64,000 bases of DNA from Ophelia neglecta (taxonomy: Eukaryota): positions 9,734,001-9,798,000 of the forward strand of contig OZ260661.1 of the NCBI GenBank assembly GCA_965285935.1, in the 5' to 3' direction. The notes under the pieces are model-generated. The model saw only the letters and a list, made by a program, of their open reading frames with translations, did not search any database and had not been told where the DNA came from. Below, one piece after another: positions 23,505 through 38,338 of the stretch. Position 1 is the stretch's first letter. Each line of letters starts with the position of its first letter. A program made the translations under genes and the position numbers.

Positions 23505-23648
23505 TTAGGACTTAGGCTTACTTTCTACACAGGATTCTCGACAACTCTGAAGATAGCTGATACAGACGGTTTTGACAACCCATTAATCACACGGAGGACT
23601 AATACAGGAATAGTGAGTACACTTTCCCATATTTACGGTTCCATAACA
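23505..23648 (+). repeat. Gypsy 5' LTR remnant (lacks the first ~105 bp)
   Basis: Near-identical to 30270-30423 except a substitution and a 10-bp duplication in the 3' copy; ends CCATAACA just before the PBS. Confidence 0.9.
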
Positions 23649-23649
23649 A

Positions 23650-23662
23650 TGGTGTCAGAAGT
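23650..23662 (+). promoter_or_regulatory. Primer-binding site (tRNA-Leu type)
   Basis: TGGTGTCAGAAGT 1 nt after the LTR, complementary to a tRNA 3' end ACTTCTGACACCA, as in tRNA-Leu(CAA). Confidence 0.8.
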
Positions 23663-25229
23663 AATGTCGAACTTCCACACCGATTAAAACTTATCGGGCC
23701 ATCTTTGAAGTTCACACACGTGTTTAGCACGCCCATGCGCTGTATGTTTCACACGCCTAAGTGTGTGGTCTATAGCCAAGGCTCGTGCATGTAATTGATA
23801 CTCTATAATGTCCACGTGGGGATTGTAAAATCGAGTGCCATCTTAGACTACTAAGCTGGTATATTTCATTCTGAATAAAAGCTATATAATACACGTGCGG
23901 ATTTTTGTTAGCAATTTAGAATTATCTGATGAAATAAATGAATTGTCAGACTTTTTCTCCGACAGTTCTCTAGTCACTGTAAAGACGGTGGCAGCCATAT
24001 TCGGAGATATAGACTGGCATATAGAGCCCATGTTAGTCAGTCATTAGATGCCTGACAGATATTGAATCTTAGCCTTAGATTCCTAAATTCTGATTTCTAG
24101 AAGTGAATTTAGAGAGGAAGTAATTAACTTTTGCTCTAAAGTTCTGAAAGTTATCCAAAAGTTGTAGTGTTTTTGGTTACAGTCAGGACTTAGAAAATTT
24201 CCTTAGACTATCTTTGGCTGTCAGATTGAAATAAATTCAGAGCTACAGAAATTCACTTGTTAGCAAAGTATAGTTGGTAATTAATTCAACTGTAGCTTAA
24301 TGAGTGTAAATGATGTGTGACTAATTGAAACGTGTTTTTCAGCACATTTAGGACACAACTCAGTTCCAGAGTGTGTAAGTGACTTTGGTAAAGGGTTTTT
24401 GATGGCTTAGTTGTGTTGAATTTGCTGGTTTTTGCTTTTTCCTTTGCATGCTTGCCTTTTCCCGCTTACACTAATACTTTTGCTTCATTTTGCTAATTCC
24501 GTTGCGTTGCTTCATTAATCTCTGCCGTTGTACGCTTGGTCTGGTAAATTGCGCTTGCCGTACACGCGGTACTATCTATATTTAGAACTTTGCTTTGTCT
24601 TTACCGTGTGGGTGAGGGTGTAGTGTAGCGCCGCTTTGGTTTTGTTGCACGCTGCAACGCATGGTTCTCGCTGTTCAGTTCGGTAAAAGTTAGACTAGTT
24701 TGCACGCCTGTTCTTTGCCGTTTCGTTGCTATTTTTAGTTGCGTGTAGAGATACTGTCGCTTGCCTAGCTGTGAGCGTTTGCGTGTTAAAGTAAAACAAG
24801 AAAAGTTGAGAGTAGCTTAATAGTTTGATTTAGCTGGAGTAAAAAACCAGCTAGTATTCAAAGTAAATTCTCGGGCAGACAGTGATCAGTCTGTTGAAGG
24901 AGTTTAACTAATTTCACCAAGTTTATACTGTAAATCACTCGACTAGCCGTAGTTGGTACGTGATCTGTGTTACTCGTGGGTCAATCGGTCTCCATGATCA
25001 GGTTGGCTAGCTTGTGACTAACAAACGTCATTCGTTTTACAGTAAACGAGCCTTCAGCGGTGGGAAGAAGACGGTATATCTTTCTACAGATCTAGCTACT
25101 GTATGACGTCAGTCCTTTGAGGATTGGTTATTAGGCTACTGATAGTTTAATAAATAGACTTTCTCAATAGTAGACTTTCTCAAGTAAAATTACAGTCACA
25201 GCTGATCAAATTGTATTTCTGTTAATAAA

Positions 25230-26225
25230 ATGTCAAATGAAATGAATGCAAACGACTTGACTTCTGAGCAACTCCAGACAATTCCAAGTGTAGGGAAGGT
25301 AACTGCTGGTAAAATAGTAACAGCCCAACAACAGGGAAGAATAACTCTCCCACACTTGCGTAATTTGTTTTCTAGTGAACCACATTTTTTGTCAGCTTGT
25401 GAGGCAGGTTTGACTGCTGATCACTTCGTCATGAGTGGTGGCCAGTTGGAGGGCAATGGGGAAGCTTTGGGGGGTCAAGAGGAAATGCAAATAAAGGCAG
25501 AACATGGCGAGCCATTGATTGGAAATTTGCTGTCAGCAGAATTAGACCAAGGGCAGGTTGGCATGACGGTGGAGCAAATGTTCTTAGCGTTGAATCAGAC
25601 TGTCACTGGTTTGGAGAATCGCATTGGTCAGTCGATGAATAAGTCGATGACTGGTATTGAGAGTAGGTTAGATAAATTAGATGAACTTAATCAGGATGTG
25701 AACAAAAAGCTAAAAAGTATGGATGAGGATTCAGCTCTCAGAATGGGTGATGTGAGGGAAGATGTGTCTTCAGTTCGTACGCAATTGGAGACTCATGTTA
25801 AGCAAGCGAAAACCGAGAGTACAAAAACAGCGTTGATGTTCGCAAGCATGCATGGTAACATTGATGGTCAAAGAGAGGAAATTTTGGGAATAAGTGATAG
25901 GATGAGGGCATTCGATTCCCGCGTAACCCTGTTGGCTAGTAAAATAAGTTCTAGGGAATCTAGCAAACGTGGGACTCCTAGCATTTCTGGGGGGTTTCGA
26001 CCAACTCCACAAAGGTTAGCTGCGGTGGCAGATGCGTTGGCGGCTGAAAACCAAACAAGAATGGGGGTCGATCCACGCATCGGTTATCCTGCTCAGTTGG
26101 ATAATGGGGGTCCGCTGATAATGCTGAAGGTACCCCTAAAACTACGGCCGAACAACGGGTATCGGACTCTGACGCAAGATTTAGGTTGGCATTTGAGGTG
26201 CAGCCTACACAACAAAGCAAGTTGA
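25230..26225 (+). CDS. Gypsy ORF1/gag N-terminal part: HhH-like motif followed by coiled coil
   Basis: 331-aa ORF after a ~1.6-kb leader. NANDLTSEQLQTIPSVGKVTAGKIV resembles a helix-hairpin-helix; heptad-rich middle; no recognisable capsid core or zinc knuckle. Confidence 0.7.
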   Translation: MSNEMNANDLTSEQLQTIPSVGKVTAGKIVTAQQQGRITLPHLRNLFSSEPHFLSACEAGLTADHFVMSGGQLEGNGEALGGQEEMQIKAEHGEPLIGNLLSAELDQGQVGMTVEQMFLALNQTVTGLENRIGQSMNKSMTGIESRLDKLDELNQDVNKKLKSMDEDSALRMGDVREDVSSVRTQLETHVKQAKTESTKTALMFASMHGNIDGQREEILGISDRMRAFDSRVTLLASKISSRESSKRGTPSISGGFRPTPQRLAAVADALAAENQTRMGVDPRIGYPAQLDNGGPLIMLKVPLKLRPNNGYRTLTQDLGWHLRCSLHNKAS

Positions 26226-26520
26226 ATGAGAGCAAAGCAGCGATTCTTGAATCGCGGCTCGACTCAAAAATCAATCCTAACGGGCAGATTAAAACTGAGC
26301 CTATCGGTTATCAATCGGTAGATCAATTCTCTCTGAGTTCTCCGTATTGCGAGACTGATAAGCTACCTGATAGTGAAGAAAACCAAGGTGACCGTCAGTT
26401 TAAGTCTGAACCGGGTGAGGTCATTAAACAAGCTCTAATTGCTCCGGGTAATCGTCCCACTGACCTACAATTTTCTGTTGACGAGCGCCCAGCCCAGATT
26501 CTGATCTAGCTTTCAAGAAT

Positions 26521-28318
26521 ATGATGGCTGGTGTTAATGAAACTATTGGGCGACAAAATATCAGAAATCCTTCTCCCGTGGAGAGTGGTCAGAAGAGTAG
26601 CTTAGACACAGGGAGTATTGGATCACTCAGTAATGAGAGTGGTCAAACTCGTAGGTTAGGTGTAGCTAAGGAAGGATCAGTCAGTAATGAGAGTGATCCG
26701 AAGGATAGTACCAATGTAGTTAGAGATGAATCATTCGGTAAAGTGAATGATGAACATGTAGATAGTTTAGATAAATCTGATAGTGAGATTAAGGCTTCAG
26801 TTAGGATAGGTAATAGTGAAAGAGATTGCCCTAGAGTCACCGAGGCGAGTAGCTCAGGCACCAGCCAGGAGAATCCCGGCATTGAAGTAAGACAATTAAA
26901 TCAAACCGATGTAGACAATGTTGGATGGTCAATGATCGTCCCAATAAAACTGAATAAAGACATCGTGGTGGAAGCAGTGATTGATACAGCGGCTACCACA
27001 TTCCTGGTTAGCTATGAAGTAGCCAAGAAACTAGGGTTTGACTTTCCCCAAGACAAGAGAGTAAGGGTTAAGGGGGCTCAAAGCGGCAACCAAGGGATGG
27101 TGTCCTATATCTGGGAACGTTTCCCTTTTGCGCTGAATGACCAAAATTACCGCCTGTTTGTTTGTGTAGCACCAATATCAGATGACTTTCTGCTTGGCTA
27201 CGACTTTCTAGGAAGGTTTGAAGGCGTAGTAGATTGTCACAAAAAATTTGTTGACGGTGGGAGGTAATGAGGTAGTAGCGACGGCCGTTAAGAAAAAGGG
27301 GGGAGAGAAGACGGTTGTCAATCGTGTATCAATGGCCAGAAGGGTGGTCGTGCCCCCTTTAACTAAAAAGGTTATTCAGGTGTCGTGTAATCAGTTGAAC
27401 GGCAAACTGGTTAATGAAAAAACTCAGGTGATACATCCGATGATGCCTAGGTTGGATGTCCCCTACTCTCTGGTCAATTGTGAAAATAGAACATATGTGA
27501 CAGTGAGAAACCCGACAGATAAATTTGTCACCTTGAAAAAGGGCATGTTGATAGGCAATAGCGTTGGGGTTGAACAAGTCTTAGAAGGTCCCGAAGGGGA
27601 ACCAACTGGTGTGTCTAGTCCGTGTGCCCGTTCGGTCGATTTGGTTAACCAAGCAGCCAACGGTGGTGCCGAGCCAGTGGGTCTTAGCTCGGAAGTTGAA
27701 CAGCTACTAAGAAGCTTGAACTTTGAGTACACGAGTGTAGACCAATTGCATGGGTTGGTTAAAGGGTTACCAGGGCACATGCGGGGGTTATTCCTTCGTT
27801 CCTGTGAGCATCTAAACGATGAGCAATCCGAGAAACTCGCAAGTTTGCTTCATGAGTTTGTTGACTCATTTTCAGCTCAAGAGCTGGATTTGGGTAATTT
27901 CTCTGAAGTTAAACATACAATTCAAACTCATCCGGGGACACCGGTAAAGTCGATACTTAGACGGGTTCCGTTAGGGTTTGAGGAGGAGGAGCGCCGCCAG
28001 TTGGATGCCATGCTGGAAAAGGGGGTTATCCAACCGTCGCAGTCAGAATGGGCCACGGCACCAGTGATGGTTCGAAAGAAATGCGGGGCAATGCGTTACT
28101 GCATAGATTACCGTGGGTTAAACGAAGTAACGGTAAAAGATACTTATCCGCTGCCGTTAATTCACGAGTGTCTAGATACCCTGCAGGGAACCGAGTGGTT
28201 TAGCACACTAGACTTGTCCTCTGGCTATTGGCAGATAGAGGTGCATGAACCGGACCGACACAAAATGGCATTTATCACCAAATATTGGTGGTTTCTCTCT
28301 TTTGTATTTTGCAGATGA
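26521..28318 (+). pseudogene. Gypsy pol fragment: aspartic protease, linker and N-terminal RT (frameshift ~27250, truncated ~28287)
   Basis: EAVIDTAATT...LLGYDFL (retropepsin); GVIQPSQSEWATAPVMVRKK..RYCIDYRGLN..KDTYPLP..FSTLDLSSGYWQI..AFIT (Gypsy RT); no YxDD downstream. Confidence 0.9.
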
Positions 28319-29773
28319 ACTACCAGGTCGTGAGGGATGAGAAACTCCGGCTTCGGCCACAGATTGAGATGGCCTTCATAGAACTAAGACGGGTTCCATT
28401 TATAGGCAGAGGGGCGGACGCGAGACTATACGCCTTTCAGTATGAAGATGACATCCCAAGACAGGTGCAGGCCAGATGGGCAACCTCCTATAAGGCTATA
28501 GCGGTGGACAAGACTCCGGCAGCGGTGGTGGTTAGCCATGTGGTGGTCCGGGGCCCGGGCCAATGGCTGGTTTTAGTACCAACTACCCCAGAGAAATATC
28601 CGCCTCCGTTGTTGTTCAAGGAGGAGTGACGAGTGTTAGAGGGATCCAGGTTTTGGGTAAAACCGTTAGCTATAGAACAGCTAATAAGAACCAGCCAACT
28701 GACCAACGTCCCGGAGGATGCGGTGGCCCCAAGGGAGATGTGGCCGAAGGGGATGGAAGACGTCATGGGAGTAGTTGGAGCGAAAGCGGTTCCTCCCCAG
28801 GTTCCATACCTGCAGGGAGACAGCTGGCATTACAGTCCGGTGGAAACCAATAAATTCGTCTCCTTGTATGGATTCGGAGAAAGGATGGTCCCAGGGACAC
28901 AGTCGGCAGCACCGTGCATGGCGGCGGACTGGGGAACGGTGACCGCTGTGGAGCCGTGGCCTCCGCTGCCATCCTTTGGGCCAGTACGGTCGTTGGGACG
29001 TGGGCGCAGCAGAACCCGTGCGACTCCGTGGGCTACTATGGTGGCTCGCGGGTCGGAAAGCTGGAAGGCGGGGAGTCCGTATCCGGTGATCGAACCCGAG
29101 GTTGGGTCACCAAGGGGGGAGAGGCAGGTCGCGCAAGCGTCAGCTGTGTCGGGCCTTCGACCGATCGAATCGGAGATTCGGTCAGGGGGGGCTGATACAG
29201 CGTCGTCAGTCTCGGGTGAGTCGGGGTTGGGAGGTGACAGAGCGAAGCGGCACAGAGTACCCAAAAAATGTTGTGTGTGTGGCATGACCTCAAGGGCGAT
29301 GAAGTCGCACATAAACAAGTTCCACTTGCCCTGGTATTATGGTGGGGAGGGCAGGGAAAAACCCGAGGGGCGCCCCAAGGTCAGTGTGCAGGTGAGGGGT
29401 GGCATGATTTTAGATTTTTTAAGGGAGGCGGCTACCCAGTTGCAGACAGACTTGTGCAACCTACCGCAGATGGTAAGTTAGAGTCAGTGTCGGCAAGAGT
29501 ATGGGGGGGGGGGAGGTTGGCATTGGGGAGGCCGAGCTTGAGACGGTTAGGGGGGTGGCGGTAACCATGGGTGTGGAGATCCCCACTGCGGGGGATATCC
29601 GTCGAATGACAGCAGTGCCCCATGTGGGCCACTGGAGAGCTATGGCTATAATCATCTCGTGTGGAAAGGACACACTTGCGGCAAGGAAACGGGATGACGA
29701 ATCCGCCAAGACCCGCGCCCTGGACACGTCCTTCGGCAAAGAGGGCCAGCTTTGCGAGGTGCTCCCGGCCTAG
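28315..29773 (+). pseudogene. Additional Gypsy ORF (~485 codons; two stops and one poly-G frameshift) with C2H2-like motif, function unknown
   Basis: ORFs 28285-28629 and 28633-29481 are in the same frame and 29501-29773 continues after a G run. A strong acceptor tttctctcttttgtattttgcAG lies directly before ATG 28315. Contains CCVCGMTSRAMKSHINKFHLPWY. Confidence 0.65.
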
Positions 29774-30155
29774 TAAGGCCAGAAGCGGGATCGAATCCGA
29801 GATTCGGTCCCAGACATTTTAGTTAAGGCAAAATAATAAAAATGATGTAGTTAATGATTTAGTTAAGTAGGTTATGGATTGGTGGTGGAGCCCGACCGAA
29901 GTTAGCTCGAGTGCTTCACCCAATCGACAGCTAAGCTGTAGCCTAAAGGTTAGTTTTGGGCAGATAGGCCTTTGTCATAAAACTAGAAAGTAAAAATTTA
30001 GATAGTATAGTCTATAGAGTAGGGATAAAGGTTTTGACAAGTAACTGGTGTTTTTTGTGCTTGCCCGCGGTGCTTCCTGTGGTCGGGAACTTCCTATGAA
30101 ACCTGTTCGAATCTCGATTCGGGAGGGCAATCCAGTGGGGGGAGTTTCTGAACAC

Positions 30156-30423
30156 GGGGGGAGAGTGTTGTGGGGAGCACAACGCTCCTACGGGGATTCC
30201 TTGGTGGGCGACGTCATGGGCGCCAAAGCGAGGCCCCCGAGTATATAAGCAGCGCAGGTTGCGCTGGGGTTAGGACCTAGGCTTACTTTCTACACTGTTC
30301 TACACAGGATTCTCGACAACTCTGAAGATAGCTGATACAGACGGTTTTGACAACCCATTAATCACACGGAGGACTAATACAGGAATAGTGAGTACACTTT
30401 CCCATATTTACGGTTCCATAACA
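30156..30423 (+). repeat. Gypsy polypurine tract (30156-30165) and 3' LTR (30166-30423) with TATA box
   Basis: GGGGGGAGAG, then TG...CA with terminal inverted repeat TGTTGTGG/CCATAACA; TATATAA at 30242-30248. Confidence 0.88.
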
Positions 30424-31883
30424 CTATTATAATAAATAATCTTCTCGCATTAACTTGTTGATAAATTAAAAAATAATTGTAGCCTAGCTCGCTATAACCC
30501 GCAGTGTAAAATTCAGACGACACTGTGTAACTATACGAGTGCCTGTCAATTGCTGTTCGCTATTTTTGAGATATTCTAGTTACCAAGTGTTCTTGTGACT
30601 TTTTGTATCGGCACGAATGGTAAAAAACAATAAAAAAATCCATGTAAAATGATAACTAGTTTATTCCTGCACGTGTGCTACCAAAACTCCTCCGACCTCC
30701 TCTTGCATAAATTATGATAAAACAAAACATGGCTGGTAAACTTTCTAAAATACGAAACCGGAAACAGGTAAGTGGTAAATAAATCTATATGAAGTAGTAT
30801 TCCAACTAATGGATTTTCCTTCAGAACATTCTCCCCCCTTGATATAACTATATCAAAGACAGGTAAAATACGAAACACTATGTATACATCTGACATACCA
30901 GAGGCGAAAGGGTTAATAACCGAAAACGAAGTGATCCTTACATTATTTTATACCAGTAATGACAGAGTATTACACATACGAAAATTTATACTTATTATAT
31001 AAGCCTACGAATACTGCATGCCTATAAACGTAACTGACGAACTTCTGTGCACATCGAAAATTAACGAAACATTACCACTTACTGCTCATGATAATACATG
31101 AAAAAACTAAACGTACAAAACCTTATCTTAAAAAAAATCAGTTTGCTACAAAGTACTCAAAAAAATTCTGAACCCTTAATAAGATGTTAATTAATAGTCA
31201 TGAATACAGATAACGAAAAAGGCCATAAGATATACGAATAGGAAATATACGAAATAACGAATAAGGGCAGTGGAAGCCTTACTAAAACTCAATACCTAGA
31301 TAATGGTACCAAAACAATCTAAGCAAATAAGTCTACAAATTACCAACTTTGTTATTGTTACTTTAACAATCTGCATTATGACAACATATGTAAATACTAC
31401 CTACTGAAAATCACGATATACCTCAAATAACAAGAAACTTCTTAGACACAGGGAAGTTTCTTTTTGAATCGGAAAACATATTAAAACCACAAATAATATA
31501 TTTTTTACTCCAACCGTACTAGAAAATTACATGATAAATGAGACCCAAGTAAGCAAACCAATACATATCAGAAAACTTTACCACTGTTTAAGCACAACAG
31601 AGTAATCATTACAAAAGACTTATACACACACAAAAAAACACACAGTCAATGTATGTTCTACCACACACACATGTTCTAAATATCATGGTATCTATTAATG
31701 TTTTTTAAAAACACAAAAACTATAGTCAGGTCTTTAACCAAAATAACCTCTGCTTTGTATCATGATGCACCTTAAAAATTCTAAATTCAAAAATGTTCAC
31801 ATGGTATTAAATATAATATCAAGCAAGATATAACCAATTTGAGTTGTATCTCTCAATGGCAACTGATTTTTACCAGTTGAATT

Positions 31884-34800
31884 TTAATCATCGTTACATT
31901 CCAATGGGCAAACGCGTGTGATTGGTCGAAAATACTCCTGATTATTCACTTGGACCTTCACGACGCGGACATGTCCATCATGCCCTGGGATTGTCTCCTT
32001 GACTCTCCCGAGAGGCCAGCTACCCCGTGGGGTTTCAGGAGTAACCATGAGAACAACTTCTCCTGGTTGAATATCACGAGCGGGAAGGAACCACTTTTTT
32101 CTTCCGCTTAATGACGGCAGCCATTCCCTCATCCAACGCGACCATACGTGACGGACTAGTTCTTGTACCCTGCGCCATCTCCGACGGGGGTCGAAGGCAT
32201 TCGAATCCACTGACGGAGTGAAGACTCCCCCCATTTGACCATGGAGAAAATGGTTTGGTGTCAGTGGTAGGATGTCCTTAGGATTGGCTGATTGATAGGT
32301 GATTGCTCTAGAATTAATCAGACCTTCGGCTCCGGTGATAGCGCTCACAAGCTCTTCATCAGTGATATCGGCCGCATTTAATATGGCATAAATGGCTTTT
32401 TTGGCTGATTTAATCATTGATTCATGAATTCCCCCAAAATGGGGCGCGAGAGGGGGGTTAAAATGCCATTTAACCATCTGATGGGCAGTTTTTTCCTGGA
32501 TTTTACTTTTGTCCAACTTCCGGTAGGGTTCGAGAAGCTCCTTTTTTCCTCCGACCAGGTTACTGTCATTGTCGCACCAGACTTCACGAGGCAGTCCCCT
32601 ACGCGATACCATCCTATAGAATGCATTTAGAAACGCGTCCGTAGTGAGAGAGTACGCCATTTCCAAATGCACAGCGCGAGTCGACATACATGTGAATAAA
32701 CACAAATATCGTTTGGTCCGGGTTTTTCCACGCCCCTGAACTGTTAGAAAAGGACCACCGAAATCAAGCGAACAATATTCGAAGGCACGAAGTGTAGGCT
32801 TGGAGCGAACAGCAGGAAGTGGAGCCATGATTTGCGATGCGGCAGGACACTTCCATCTACGACACTGTGAACACGACATCTCATACTCTCGAATTGCTTC
32901 ACGAGCAGCGACTACCCAGTAATGGGCTGATAATGATGCCAATATTTGATTGGTTCCTGACATGTGACCACCTTGATCATGGTAGTGCTTGACGATGAGT
33001 GTCGTCACCCAGCTCCGACGCGGAAGGATAACCGGAAACTTCACATCATATGACAAGAACTCCGCATACTTCAGCCTGCTATCAGATCTCAAAAGCCCGT
33101 CGTCATCTATGCGAGGGCTGAGATTACAAATACGACTACTTTTAGGAATGTCCTTCTTGCTGCTGAGGGCTTTGATTTCAACTGGAAACGCCTCCCTCTG
33201 AGATTCGACGATAATCTGAGTTTTTGCATTCTCTATTTCTTCTGGCTGCAGTTCACCACAGGATCTCTCTGATTTGGGTGTGCAACAGTTATTGATAAAT
33301 CTGTTTACCCATGCCTGCACGCGAGTCAGTCTTAACCAACTGGAGAACCGGGTTGGTTTAAGACGCCACTCACTGCTACTCGAATCAGTTTCATATGTCA
33401 CCAACATATGATTTTGCGTGTGTTTCGAATAGGCAATGTTTTGTTTTGATCTTTTTATTTCATGTTGAGAGTTTATTTTCTTTTCTACAATGTTTTCTGG
33501 CCATTCTAACATAGGTTTTTCCAAGAATGAAGGTCCATGCCACCACTCTGATTTTTCGGCAACCTGTCCGGCTGGTAAACCTCTTGTTAGAAAGTCTGCA
33601 GGGCTTTGATCGGTGGGTACATGGCGCCATTTGCCCGGGGATGTGGCGTCCTGGATCTCGCCCACCCGATTGGCAACGAATGGTTTAAATTCTCTGCTGT
33701 GACCACGGATCCACCACAACACATTCGAATTGTCAACCCAGAATACTGCAGTGTCCAACTTTAGTTCAATAACTGATGACACGACTTTTGCCAAACGGAG
33801 ACCTAATACAGCGCCCATCAATTCGACACGAGGAATACTGATCGATTTCAGCGGAGCGACTCGAGCGCGAGCAGCGACGAATCGGCAATTAACAGATCCA
33901 TCCACATAAGCAGAGCTTAGGTAAGTTATAGCGCCGTACGCGCTTTCGGACTTGTCCACAAATGTGTGCAATTGTTTGTCCGAGATCTCCTTATTTTCAC
34001 GTAAACACCTCGGCACTCTGATCTCAGTCAAATCACTTAACTCATCGCACCACTCCCTGATTTTGTCACTCAGATCACTTTTTAGGGGTTCATCCCAATC
34101 CTGGCCTGCAATCCATGCCTCTTGTACCATCATTTTTGCCCTAATTACAAATGGTGATAGGAAACCGAGGGGGTCGAATAATCTGGCAATGATACTCAAC
34201 AGGGTTCGTTTGGTTGGGTTAAAAGGAGAGGGTGGCGGACTGACATGGAAAGTGAACACATCATCAGTTGCCTACCACAAGACACCCAGTGTCTTTACAC
34301 AAGGAAACCCTTATCTAAGTCCACCTCAGATGCTCTATCTTCAGGGTTTACTGCTTGCAACACAGTAGGCGAATTTGACAGCCATTTTCTTGGATACATC
34401 CCGGCTTCACCCCACAAGGCTTTCAACTGTCTAACCAGCTCAACACCCACGCCATCATTGTCAACAGAATCCATGCTATCAATCATATATGTACTCTTTT
34501 GTACAGTTTCTGCAGCAAGTGGGTAGATATCGGCATGTAGCTCGGCATTCTTCTGAGAAACATACTGAGCTACAAATGGCGATGCATTTACACCAAACAC
34601 AACTCTCTTGAACTCCAGGATGCTTGGTTCCTGCGAAATGTCTCCATACCGCCATAAGAATCGATGGTATGGTCTGTCGGCAATCTGCAGATACATCTGG
34701 GCAATATCACACATCACAGCCACTGAGTTTCTTCTAAAACGTAAAAGTACATCAAACAAGTCTCTTTGTAATTTTGGCCCTTGATGTATCATGTCATTAA

Positions 34801-37272
34801 GTGACACACCTTCGTGAGTAGCGGAAGCATCGAACACCACTGTCACTTTTGTGGTGGATTTATCTGGCTTAATGACTGGAAAATGCGGATGATACCATCC
34901 ACCTTTGTCTTTCTCATCTAATGATACTGCTCTGATGTAGTCCTTTGTAACATATTCAGATATCACATCATTGTAGGTCTTGATAAGCTGAGGATCCTTC
35001 AACAGCCTCTTTTCAGTGTTTTCTAGCCTCTTTAAGGCTGTTTCATAATTCAATGGTAAATCAGGCCAACCATTGCGCCATGGGATACCAACTGTATATC
35101 TGGATTCTTGGCGGGATATTGATTGTTCAATTTGGGCTATTGCATGTTTTTCATCAGTGTTCAAGATATGAGGGCCATCCTCAAGTCCTGACTGTTCAAT
35201 TTCCCAAAAGTTTCTAACACTTTGTTCTAAATCGCTTGTGTAGAAGGAAAAGAAAGACTGATTTTCCCTAGGTTCGGCTACCCGACCTACACAAGTCCAC
35301 CCCAATGGTGTTAAACGAGCTATGGGGTCACCTAGCTTCCCATGTCGTTCTTCCAGCGACTGGTGTAATTCTACACAATCAATTCCAATGAGTACATCAA
35401 CAATTTTTCTAGAGCCTACACCAGGGAACTCAATGTTCCGTAGGTGAGTGTAACCATCTTTGTACTGTTTCCAGTCCACCATTTGCATGTTCCCGGTAAC
35501 CCTGTCCGTCGTCAAGGCATCAACGGTTACTTGGGTTTTTCGATCGATACTTAAAATATCTATTCTGACTTCTGTGCTAGATATTTGTTTCCTGCCATTT
35601 AGTACATTAACCGTGATATGTTTTTCGATACCATTCAGATCTTACCCGTCTACAATATCGTTGTTTACATATGTGTGACTGCTGGCGTCATCCAGCAAAG
35701 CATTTACTGTTACTTCTCGACCCTTATTTTTCAAAATAATTGGCACTGTGCGAAAAGAAAGGATTCCATCGTGGTTAGTGTAGTTCGAAGTGTGGTGGGA
35801 CCGTTCCTCTCCATTGGGCACACGATTTGAAACTGGCCCAGCAGGGTTTCTTGGGTCAGGTGTAGCCGGGGCTTGGAAGTTTCTTGCAACAGGGGTGTGT
35901 GAATTGTGTAAGAGGCGATTATGGTTTGATCTGCAGTTGTCCACTCCGCAAATCCTACTTCTCTTACAAGAATCCCCCCGGTGGTTGGATCCCAAACAGC
36001 GAAAACATAATTTTAGTTCCTTTGCTTTGTCCCACCTCTTGTCTATATTCAGCTCCTTAAATTTGTCACAGAGCCATATAGGATGCAGCCCCTGGCAAAC
36101 CTGGCATTTTCTTTCAGGTTTTTTCTCTGGTAATGTCTGTGTCACAAATGCCCCCGAGTTGCCAATTTTTCTATGACTGTCTCTTTTGTTATCCGTTTTG
36201 GAACTGTCCATCACCCCTCGTATTGTCTCTGAAGCTACTGTCTAAAATTCTGACTCTAAAATGACCCACCTCCGTAATGTCTCCACTGATTCTACTTCTT
36301 TTTTTCATGAACCCATCTATTGTATTGTGTGAGCATTGGTTGATTCATCTTTTGTTGAAGTCTCGCATACAAGGTTCCTGCTGACAGCTCCTCGTGCCTT
36401 TGTGAATCTTTTAAATTAATAACCACTATGTTCAACAGATCTGCAAACTTCTCCAAATCTTTGTGATTATTTGTTCTGATAGTCTGGAATTGTTCTATCT
36501 CCTCTAAGTAAAGTGCTATCTGCCTCCGCTTGCCCCCATATTTTCTATCCAATCTCTCTTTTGCAGCCGTGTAAGCTGCAGCTGAATGTCCTAAACTTCG
36601 TATGACCTGGAGGGCGTGTCCTGATAAGTATTGCCTGAGTTGCAACAGTTTGTATTCTGGAGTGGCTGGTGCCGCCTCCACACAAGCAATAAAGGAACTT
36701 TTCCACTGTTCATATTGCCTTTTATCTCCAGAAAATACTGGAATTGACACTCTCTTTAATTGTCGCCACAAGTCCTGGCCGATGGCAGTTTCATTGTTTC
36801 ATTGTTGAGGGGCTTCTCTTGTGGTATTTACAGGTACATTGTCAATATCGGGGTCTATAAATTGTTCATCAAAATCTAGTCTATTTACCAGCGGATCTGA
36901 CCTTTGACCTCTATCTTCATGGCGGTTACTCGAGACGCGCCTGACGGGAGTTTTCGGCACCATGCCGGTACTGGCTGATGGTCCTGATGTCGGCAAATGC
37001 TTTCTGATAATAGATCTGGTGTAGTACGAATCGAGAAGTTTTTGTTCATGTTCAATGGACTGTTCTAACCTGTTTATTTCATAGGTGATGTCGTCCTCTA
37101 TTTCCCTAAATTCCGCGTGTACAGGCTGAGATTCATCTCTAGCTCTCCGTATGTTGATTCTCAATGGATAAGACCACGTTTGATCGCCATCCTTAGCTGC
37201 GGCTGCACCAGCAGCTCTCGATACTGCGCCATATCTATTCATGTCCTTATCCATGATGAACTTGTTAACCAA
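31884..37272 (-). pseudogene. BEL/Pao gag-pol polyprotein broken into at least five ORFs
   Basis: IPVFSGD..YEQWKSSF (gag), three Cys/His knuckles, ALLDDAS (protease), VVFDAS...FGVNASPF (RT), FDPLG..APLK..SIPRVEL (Pao RNase H region), HHCC + DFGGPF..HLE..GGIHES (integrase), WPLGRV..GHDGHVRVV C-terminus. Confidence 0.95.
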
Positions 37273-37327
37273 AATACATATATAATCCGGTCACGACAAT
37301 TGACCATATTTCACCAATACAACTACG

Positions 37328-37338
37328 CTCTGCTACCA
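37328..37338 (-). promoter_or_regulatory. Primer-binding site (initiator tRNA-Met)
   Basis: TGGTAGCAGAG on the minus strand, 3 nt inside the 5' LTR boundary. Confidence 0.85.
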
Positions 37339-38338
37339 AAATGTTCTTGTGACTTTTTGTATCGGCACGAATGGTAAAAAACAATAAAAAAATCCATGTA
37401 AAATGATAACTAGTTTATTCCTGCACGTGTGCTACCAAAACTCCTCCGACCTCCTCTTGCATAAATTATGATAAAACAAAACATGGCTGGTAAACTTTCT
37501 AAAATACGAAACCGGAAACAGGTAAGTGGTAAATAAATCTATATGAAGTAGTGTTCCAACTAATGGATTTTCCTTCAGAACACCTAGTAAGATACATGTT
37601 TTGACATTTCAGCCCATGCAGATGGTCAAAGGAATAGTTGGACATGCTCTCATATACCTCAGAAATCTGCATAAAAATGCTGCTATGGTCAATTGAAAAA
37701 TGGAGGTGGGATAGATTGCATAAAAATGTTGATGCAGGTCCAAATTATACCAATCTCCCCCCCCCCCCCCCCCCTCCGATTTGTAATACGATAGAAGGTC
37801 CTACTCACATGTATAATGATGGTGAAAGATGAAAGCACCTTACATTTGATGACACTTAAAACTAAATGTTTCCTTCATTCTTATGCTACGCACAAGCCAC
37901 TTAACAAGCACATTTAATGTAAATAAAGACTCAATTCGTATTTATCTATCAGTGTTTTTAGCTGAATACAACATTCAGACAGGTATTCAATCCAAATTCT
38001 AAAAGTATATACCTAAAATGTTGACAACCCAGATGGCATTTCTGAAGGTGACAAACGAATAATGATAGTGAAATAACCAACATATTAATTAACTAACGTA
38101 GTAAAACACAAAACAATGAAATGCAACGACCTGACAATGAGTAAATTTTTCACAATTGGCATTATTTGGTAAGTGAACTTTAAAAGTTAGCAGCCGAAGT
38201 TAGTAATGTAATTATGTTATCACACTACATTAGAAAACTGCCTCATTCAAGTTATTGTCAGTGCTGGAATTAAGTACATGACCTCTGGTCCCAGGCGTGA
38301 GTAAACAATTATGTATGGAAAAATGGCAATGACTGAAT

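Follow-up and report, generated by a model that had tools for sequence, protein, structure and literature searches.

Behind pol, in the slot of envelope (env) genes, at least 13 Gypsy families of the Ophelia neglecta genome carry a further gene that is not env and that, judging from sequence comparisons, is almost certainly real, conserved, and under purifying selection. A broken copy of this third gene, or third open reading frame (ORF3), lies in the stretch of DNA analyzed here, a window of 64,000 nucleotides read from the forward strand of contig OZ260661.1 (assembly GCA_965285935.1, positions 9,734,001 to 9,798,000), in which a Gypsy element spans positions 23505 to 30423. As a tentative reading of its function, we propose that a spliced message of the gene yields a nuclear helper whose target, in trans, is RNA of the element itself.

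Protein searches of the genome returned 22, 98, and 129 matches to the third gene. We fetched 20 of these loci, of which 18 had an integrase directly upstream on the same strand, one had a pol end without the integrase core, and one had no pol match. In 19 of these 20, a homologous frame thus follows pol, which contradicts the possibility, raised in the initial annotation of the window, that the segment is an insertion unique to one copy. Natural open frames of about 400 to 520 amino acids (aa) were present in eight of the 13 families, and identity between families was 25 to 50%. Certain family pairs recurred in trees built from different proteins: B with D and K with P were strongly supported in the reverse transcriptase (RT), integrase, and ORF3 trees, while weaker pairs joined C with E and F with G in the integrase and ORF3 trees and A with J in the RT and ORF3 trees. 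The RT tree holds families from this genome only, the deeper forks of the family trees are open, and the tree of the N-terminal domain has long branches; with these limits, the third gene likely descended together with pol. Beyond this genome, a search of 1.84 billion representative proteins gave four matches, among them one full-length relative (34% identity, expect value [E] 1e-36) and one fragment, from other sources. Three other large protein searches matched none, one, and none, and none of 160 pattern matches in metagenome contigs was confirmed.

Selection was assessed as the ratio of nonsynonymous to synonymous substitution rates (dN/dS), using Nei-Gojobori counts and leaving out codons near indels. 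A DNA search of the genome recovered at least 10 other copies of the window's family (92 to 97% identity). Among variants shared by at least two copies of this family, dN/dS was 0.41 in the 5' part of the gene (10 synonymous and 12 nonsynonymous changes; p 0.03) and 0.18 in the C-terminal part (10 synonymous and 6 nonsynonymous; p 0.0008), and it was 0.19 in pol. Variants private to one copy gave 0.69 and 0.89, values that fit decay after insertion and that double as a neutral control for the method. Shared variants of a sister family yielded 0.19 for ORF3 versus 0.49 for gag, and 16 of 17 pairs from seven other families fell between 0.12 and 0.33; counting against constraint, the remaining pair appeared unconstrained (1.45 on 17 changes). 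A functionless captured passenger, or an insertion confined to the window copy, is hardly credible given open frames in families this divergent, dN/dS far below 1, and a gene tree that follows pol, even if one lineage described below copies itself without the gene and the window's own family has no copy with a whole frame.

The window copy itself is a pseudogene. Much of what had been noticed at the start of the gene was confirmed: RT homology stops at about 28285 (the initial annotation gave about 28287), a pyrimidine tract and CAG immediately precede the ATG, and the region is GC rich (0.53 to 0.55, versus about 0.37 in its surroundings). The open frame of about 485 codons read into it does not exist, as the gene is interrupted by two in-frame stop codons and a frame change in a G-run (Table 1). 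A whole frame was found in 0 of 11 copies of the family; the longest stop-free pieces measured 84 to 324 aa in nine copies, and the remaining two copies were truncated. Several of the breaks fall in G-runs, where slippage or assembly error may explain some of them. That the pieces form one protein can be read from unmended copies: in one, 290 aa are open from the ATG onward, and in another an open stretch of 324 aa runs from mid-gene to its end.

That the window copy had retained the gene despite losing pol does not hold either. Three breaks interrupt its gene, the end of the deletion lies about 27 bases upstream of the ATG, substitutions confined to one copy look neutral, and deletions within the gene occur in other family members as well. 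Pol was lost here through ordinary internal deletion. We ruled out that the 2.9-kb deletion from RT to ORF3 is a copied splice product, as its end does not lie at an AG. Neither of the two deletions of the window copy (about 1.5 and 2.9 kb) is shared by any of 10 other family copies. Keeping the gene without pol does occur, in the sister family; it is not shown by the window copy. As a separate observation, three family copies within about 100 kb (L033, L034, and L035; G000:C15:0.41-0.52 Mb) lack nearly the same part of ORF3, corresponding to about 28570 to 29547, and a deletion joint of this type is also present in one sequencing run's contig.

Genes for env in this slot are expressed through splicing, and sequence signals suggest that the third gene, too, is probably translated from a spliced message. 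Our tests covered 14 families, namely the 13 above and a type fused to a TatD nuclease that is described below, with donors taken from 12 long terminal repeats (LTRs). The gene had its own ATG behind an acceptor-like site in all 14 families; within the window's family, the one copy of 10 that departs from this arrangement has no ATG. The best acceptor score before the start averaged 11.9 over the 14 families, compared to 8.4 ahead of 1857 other ATGs (P 5e-6). A second acceptor score, defined after the sequences had been seen, averaged 10.8, a level that none of 10,000 composition-kept shuffles attained (4.9 ± 1.1). The best donor per LTR scored 6.5; dinucleotide shuffles gave 5.66 ± 0.29 (P 0.0013) and the antisense strand 5.9, and the 60 bases ahead of the LTR donor were free of ATG in 11 of 12 families. 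In four families, we noticed after the fact a GCAGT(C/T) lying 25 to 26 bases upstream of the donor, which we take to be initiator-like. Both donor-like sites proposed for the window are present, GTGAGT at 23613 and, in the leader, GTAAGT near 24375, the latter in two copies. Three contig sets of one sample, whose flat cover marks them as probably DNA, contained no joint from a donor to 28315 and give no evidence either way. The conserved acceptor-like site, along with purifying selection, bears out the original proposal of a non-env accessory gene in the env slot.

The ORF3 protein is predicted to have two folded domains with a loose linker between them. In the predicted structure of a natural homologue of 423 aa, two confident domains (residues about 5 to 178 and 235 to 398) flank a low-confidence linker (mean predicted local distance difference test score [pLDDT], 78.9). 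The C-terminal domain of the window's family, modeled from a natural open piece (pLDDT, 85.9; predicted template modeling score, 0.78), forms two short strands and a helix that bear C, C, H, and H, followed by a helical bundle with an HWR motif. The model thus places two cysteines and two histidines in a beta-beta-alpha unit, as expected of a C2H2-type finger, and across 18 domains the last H is nearly invariant. The finger followed by LPWY had been recognized initially with a spacing of eight residues; the motif stands, and the spacing is in fact nine (CxxC-x9-H-x4-H). A classical C2H2 finger has 12 residues between the second C and the first H, and the best zf-C2H2 match, in 1 of the 18 domains, reached only E 0.14. 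Pfam offered no family for any of the three ORF3 pieces in the window or for eight homologues, the C-terminal domain drew weak zinc-finger matches that were all below cutoff, the best hits among PDB sequences had E 1.5 and 0.22, and Foldseek returned nothing at E ≤ 0.001 from the PDB or viral models. The protein may bind nucleic acid, as initially proposed; the basic patch upstream of the finger (Table 1) is a likely nuclear import signal.

The position between pol and the 3' LTR and the env-like splice signals would also suit a diverged env or another protein for cell-to-cell spread. No signal peptide or membrane anchor was found across 13 natural ORF3 frames (best 19-residue hydropathy mean, 0.64 to 1.74) or, as first annotated, in the three window pieces (best, 1.46). 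No fusion-protein or G-protein fold was among the fold matches listed for the ORF3 models, and the comparison with viral models was equally negative at the threshold above. A protein with a zinc finger and a basic patch is, moreover, an odd candidate for this role, and we regard such a function as very improbable.

The C-terminal domain, here called the HLPW domain after its CxxC-x9-H-x4-HLPWY...HWR pattern, also occurs outside this gene. At 6 of 24 TatD loci of the genome it stands directly upstream of TatD (E 1e-9 to 2e-6; profile match, 96%), so that a link of this kind, initially noted for some mollusc retroelement proteins, holds in this genome. Of the HLPW-TatD loci, four were examined; each follows the pol of a different Gypsy family from those above, the same one in all four, and three have LTRs of 219 to 220 bases that are 99 to 100% alike. 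This TatD-type third gene opens with an Arg/Ser-rich stretch and has all of the motifs DSHAH, GEVGLD, LHCR, HRHCF, and ESDAP, which presumably hold the metal ligands. TatD itself had zero matches in the window's frames and eight homologues, in agreement with the initial annotation. The family carrying the Arg/Ser-rich start, HLPW domain, and TatD is young and occupies six genome places, for example L148:6346-9163 (G000:C1:15.47 Mb) and L145:6268-9061 (C15:0.88 Mb). A second multicopy, intronless type of TatD (L125, L132, and L133; G000:C8:0.87 Mb, C1:149.41 Mb, and C12:71.80 Mb) has neither an HLPW domain nor a Gypsy pol nearby.

Two large single frames carry the HLPW domain in another setting. 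A frame of 3184 aa, found at one place (L110:3398 to L111:3048; G000:C2:63.69 Mb), has an Arg/Ser-rich start, ankyrin repeats, and six HLPW domains, and a frame of 1554 aa, also at one place (L221-L223; C5:69.70 Mb), has three. The domains of these ankyrin frames match that of the third gene with a profile probability of 97.5% (E 5e-12), and two proteins from other sources (P0003 and P0004) alternate HLPW domains with ankyrin repeats in the same build. The ankyrin frames are likely host genes of an unnamed family. These findings raise a different possibility, that the third gene is an anti-silencing factor, with a domain taken over from a nuclear ankyrin-repeat protein of the host, which shields the chromatin of its family as a decoy or recruiter. 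A precedent would be the VANC proteins of plant Mu-like transposons, described as probably derived by capture from a chromatin regulator of the host (PMC13547354). Recurrence of the domain in the two frames and in proteins of the same build elsewhere favors this explanation, as does the action in trans discussed below. The host status of the frames, however, derives from their single copy and conserved build only, and the long branches of the domain tree give no direction of transfer between host and element; we consider this explanation somewhat unlikely.

Evidence on where the gene is needed comes from young pol-less lineages of the sister family: at 19 of 23 loci examined, gag leads directly into ORF3 and pol is absent. 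Fourteen of these 19 have two full LTRs that are at least 99.5% alike, and many of the pol-less copies bear 4-base target duplications. Among 22 copies with the main type of joint, 14 have a fully open ORF3. This count includes two truncated copies found through a leader search, and it favors whole copies, since the first 20 came from a search with ORF3 itself. This main lineage has ORF3 and no gag zinc knuckle. A second, independent joint was present in three copies, none with a whole ORF3. In a third lineage, comprising six of nine further loci, gag (with its zinc knuckle) and protease are complete, and RT to integrase, the acceptor, and all of ORF3 except its last 68 aa are lost. Five of these six copies have LTRs that are 98.8 to 100% alike; therefore, the gene is not needed in cis. 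The same six copies speak for action in trans. Pol-less and pol-bearing copies are intermixed in both trees, and selection specific to the pol-less lineage was not upheld, since variants found only there had a dN/dS of 0.42 (p 0.07); the constraint on ORF3 in pol-less copies may therefore enter by recombination with full elements. We also rejected splice products as the source of the joints, which lie more than 100 bases before the ATG and leave the acceptor in place.

Some further observations concern these lineages. Together, the three (L115:3201-8278; L024/L023; L206-L211) outnumber the pol-bearing copies of their family. Two of them have kept ORF3 with the gag zinc knuckle cut off, and one has kept the whole of gag and protease and not ORF3. 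A copy at L164:513-3911 has identical LTRs and a target duplication around only the first gag codons and an open ORF3.

The knuckle pattern could mean that the third gene works in the particle or in reverse transcription and integration, as a nucleic-acid chaperone or targeting factor that substitutes for the gag zinc knuckle: in the commonest pol-less lineage ORF3 is present and the knuckle absent, the lineage that lost ORF3 still has the knuckle, and a sister element has this HLPW domain joined to a TatD nuclease. Full-length families, however, bear both knuckle and ORF3, a separate spliced message would be an indirect loading route for a particle protein, and two lineages are too few to show complementarity. 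Such a role seems to us decidedly doubtful.

We tentatively favor a nuclear helper acting in trans on the element's RNA. A short first exon in the LTR would be joined to the acceptor before the ATG of the third gene. With the LTR donor joined to this acceptor, all of gag-pol would be one long intron, and the element would have to export unspliced RNA. The protein would enter the nucleus by way of its basic patch, its zinc-finger/helical domain would bind nucleic acid or a host nuclear partner, and unspliced gag-pol RNA would thereby be exported or protected, as by the protein CERV for the element Cer1 (PMC10309623). An export role resembling that of CERV or Rev is a prediction; the basic patch and the action in trans are the features that bear on it. 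The lineage without ORF3 has also lost the acceptor, which an export model allows, and the Arg/Ser-rich start that the 3184-aa ankyrin frame has in common with the third gene of TatD type adds to the case.

Several points weigh against this proposal. One of the two acceptor scores was defined after the fact. A stricter acceptor motif occurs in only 4 of 14 families (P 0.05), GTRAG occurs in the last 110 LTR bases of only 5 of 13, one of these being no true LTR, and the junction of donor and acceptor is a prediction from sequence signals. Binding to RNA, DNA, or protein cannot be separated, and a single finger with nine-residue spacing need not bind nucleic acid. The best VIA-align scores, Z 4.4 for the N-terminal domain (1zvp; root mean square deviation 3.6; 82 aligned), which was not folded alone, and 3.7 for the C-terminal domain, are below the level of unrelated models. 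The differences from CERV given at the end of this text belong on the same side.

A broader proposal, which as a whole we consider unlikely, is that an undescribed zinc-finger/helical module is shared by host nuclear ankyrin proteins and Gypsy elements. In two third genes, one combining it with a new alpha/beta domain and the other with a TatD nuclease, the module would help the elements to counter, in trans, the control of RNA or chromatin by the host. One family would have split, in the manner of a divided viral genome, into pol-less lineages that complement each other, one giving this protein and the other gag and protease in complete form.

The remaining parts of the window element are listed in Table 1. 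The pol order of its family, together with LTRs, a primer-binding site, and a polypurine tract, identifies it as a Ty3/Gypsy LTR retrotransposon, and one family copy has a pol of 1504 aa with protease, RT, ribonuclease H (RNase H), and integrase in that order, followed by the same third frame. Whole LTRs in other copies measure 257 to 258 bases. The two LTRs of the window copy are nearly identical; therefore, the insertion is young. The primer-binding site presumably pairs with a leucine transfer RNA (tRNA), and ARAGORN found zero tRNA genes in the two loci scanned; a long leader separates this site from the start of gag at 25230. The helix-hairpin-helix that forms the first part of gag (window 25230-25360; L115:4119-4240) is weak in the window's family (E 0.001) and above cutoff in the sister family (E 2e-7; Pfam HHH and HHH_3). 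Elsewhere, L094:3066-3096 shows an LTR piece inside an element and then a primer site that extends over about 31 bases, longer than in other copies, and presumably resembles a tRNA end. Directly behind the Gypsy copy lies a BEL/Pao element (window 30585-37582, minus strand), with repeats at 30585 and 37339 that are 99% identical.

Table 1. Features of the Gypsy copy, in window coordinates
Feature	Position	Strand	Basis or remark
5' LTR, remnant (last ~145 bases)	23505..23648	+	Versus 3' LTR: one indel of 10 bases, and 1 mismatch over 126 aligned bases
Candidate splice donor, GTGAGT at 23613, within LTR	23610..23618	+	Kept in 11/12 LTR copies of the family
Primer-binding site	23650..23662	+	Stands after LTR in several families
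gag, 5' part, with N-terminal helix-hairpin-helix motif; frameshifted, 3' part deleted	25230..26596	+
First deletion joint, ~1.5 kb (gag end and pol start)	26581..26596	.	Comparison with copies L019, L021, and L031
Aspartic protease	26941..27216	+	Pfam PF13975, E 5e-8
Reverse transcriptase, first part only	28070..28285	+	Pfam PF00078, positions 1-97 of 205
Second deletion joint, ~2.9 kb (rest of RT, RNase H, integrase)	28285..28289	.	Ends ~27 bases before ATG, not at AG
Candidate splice acceptor, pyrimidine tract and CAG	28290..28314	+	AG directly before ATG in 9/10 copies
Third gene (ORF3), broken in window copy	28315..29773	+
N-terminal alpha/beta domain (predicted), no known family, ~175 aa, cut by TGA 28627-28629	28315..28840	+	Alignment; confident part of homologue's model
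Basic patch ahead of zinc finger, likely nuclear import signal	29233..29268	+	K/R at 5-7 of 12 residues in 8/9 families
CxxC-x9-H-x4-H-LPWY zinc-finger-like motif	29269..29337	+	C, C, and first H invariant in 18/18 domains
Helical part of C-terminal domain (modeled), HWR motif at 29630-29638; broken by TAG 29479-29481 and frame change 29503-29513	29338..29700	+
Polypurine tract	30156..30165	+	Sequence
3' LTR, 258 bases, TG...CA	30166..30423	+

Non-env third genes of LTR elements are already known, few of them with a known function. The one described here is old within its branch, under selection, made of two predicted domains that match no family or fold, and linked through sequence similarity to what are likely genes of the host. 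How Gypsy elements of animals bring unspliced RNA through the controls of the host, or how they escape silencing, can be tested on it, and its shared domain gives a handle on an unnamed family of host proteins. Natural lineages with and without the gene coexist in one genome, so that they can be compared without engineering.

Among known systems, the non-autonomous TR-GAG elements of plants have LTRs and gag and lack RT, RNase H, and integrase. In this they resemble the sister family's pol-less lineages, which differ in belonging to an animal Gypsy element and in that the main lineage keeps an open accessory gene. We found no paper on TatD in Gypsy elements or on this gene in the literature covered, a scope that leaves most subscription journals and Repbase reports outside. 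The main text of a survey of mollusc LTR elements does not use the words ORF, env, or envelope (PMC6238403), a survey of annelids treats additional frames only in general terms (PMC8220671), and the available part of an errantivirus survey mentions neither TatD nor a third ORF (PMC13524379). The env of errantiviruses (PMC13524379) occupies the same slot between pol and the 3' LTR as the third gene. An acceptor-like site before the start is a further likeness to env; the third gene differs in having no signal peptide or membrane anchor, and no fusion-protein fold is among the matches listed for it.

A close parallel is CERV, a spliced, non-env protein of 517 aa from Cer1, a Ty3/Gypsy element of Caenorhabditis elegans; it is nuclear, and its function in the export of unspliced Cer1 RNA has been shown (PMC10309623). 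Like CERV, the third gene would encode a non-env Gypsy protein of similar size (about 400 to 520 aa here) with predicted folded domains, flexible linkers, a candidate nuclear import signal, and a metal-finger-like part, and a spliced message, shown for CERV, is probable here from its signals. The differences, drawn from a comparison by description only, are that CERV is spread over five exons, of which three use the gag frame, and comprises H, M, and G domains, with a finger of the C4 type and a domain like that of G proteins, whereas the third gene has one coding exon with its own ATG, a predicted C2H2-type finger, and no fold match. The LTR elements Juno and Vesta of bdelloid rotifers carry non-env ORF3s that encode a DEDDy exonuclease and a GDSL esterase (PMC5408684). 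They are alike in having a non-env third frame behind pol, and their 3'-5' nuclease cargo recalls the TatD-type gene of the sister family; theirs, however, are known enzymes and family specific, whereas the third gene here is branch-wide, with no known family and no evident catalytic motif. The VANC anti-silencing proteins, which are likely captured host regulators (PMC13547354), differ in belonging to plant DNA transposons and in having a function that has been shown. The likeness, again by description only, is that of a mobile-element accessory protein sharing a domain with a likely host protein.

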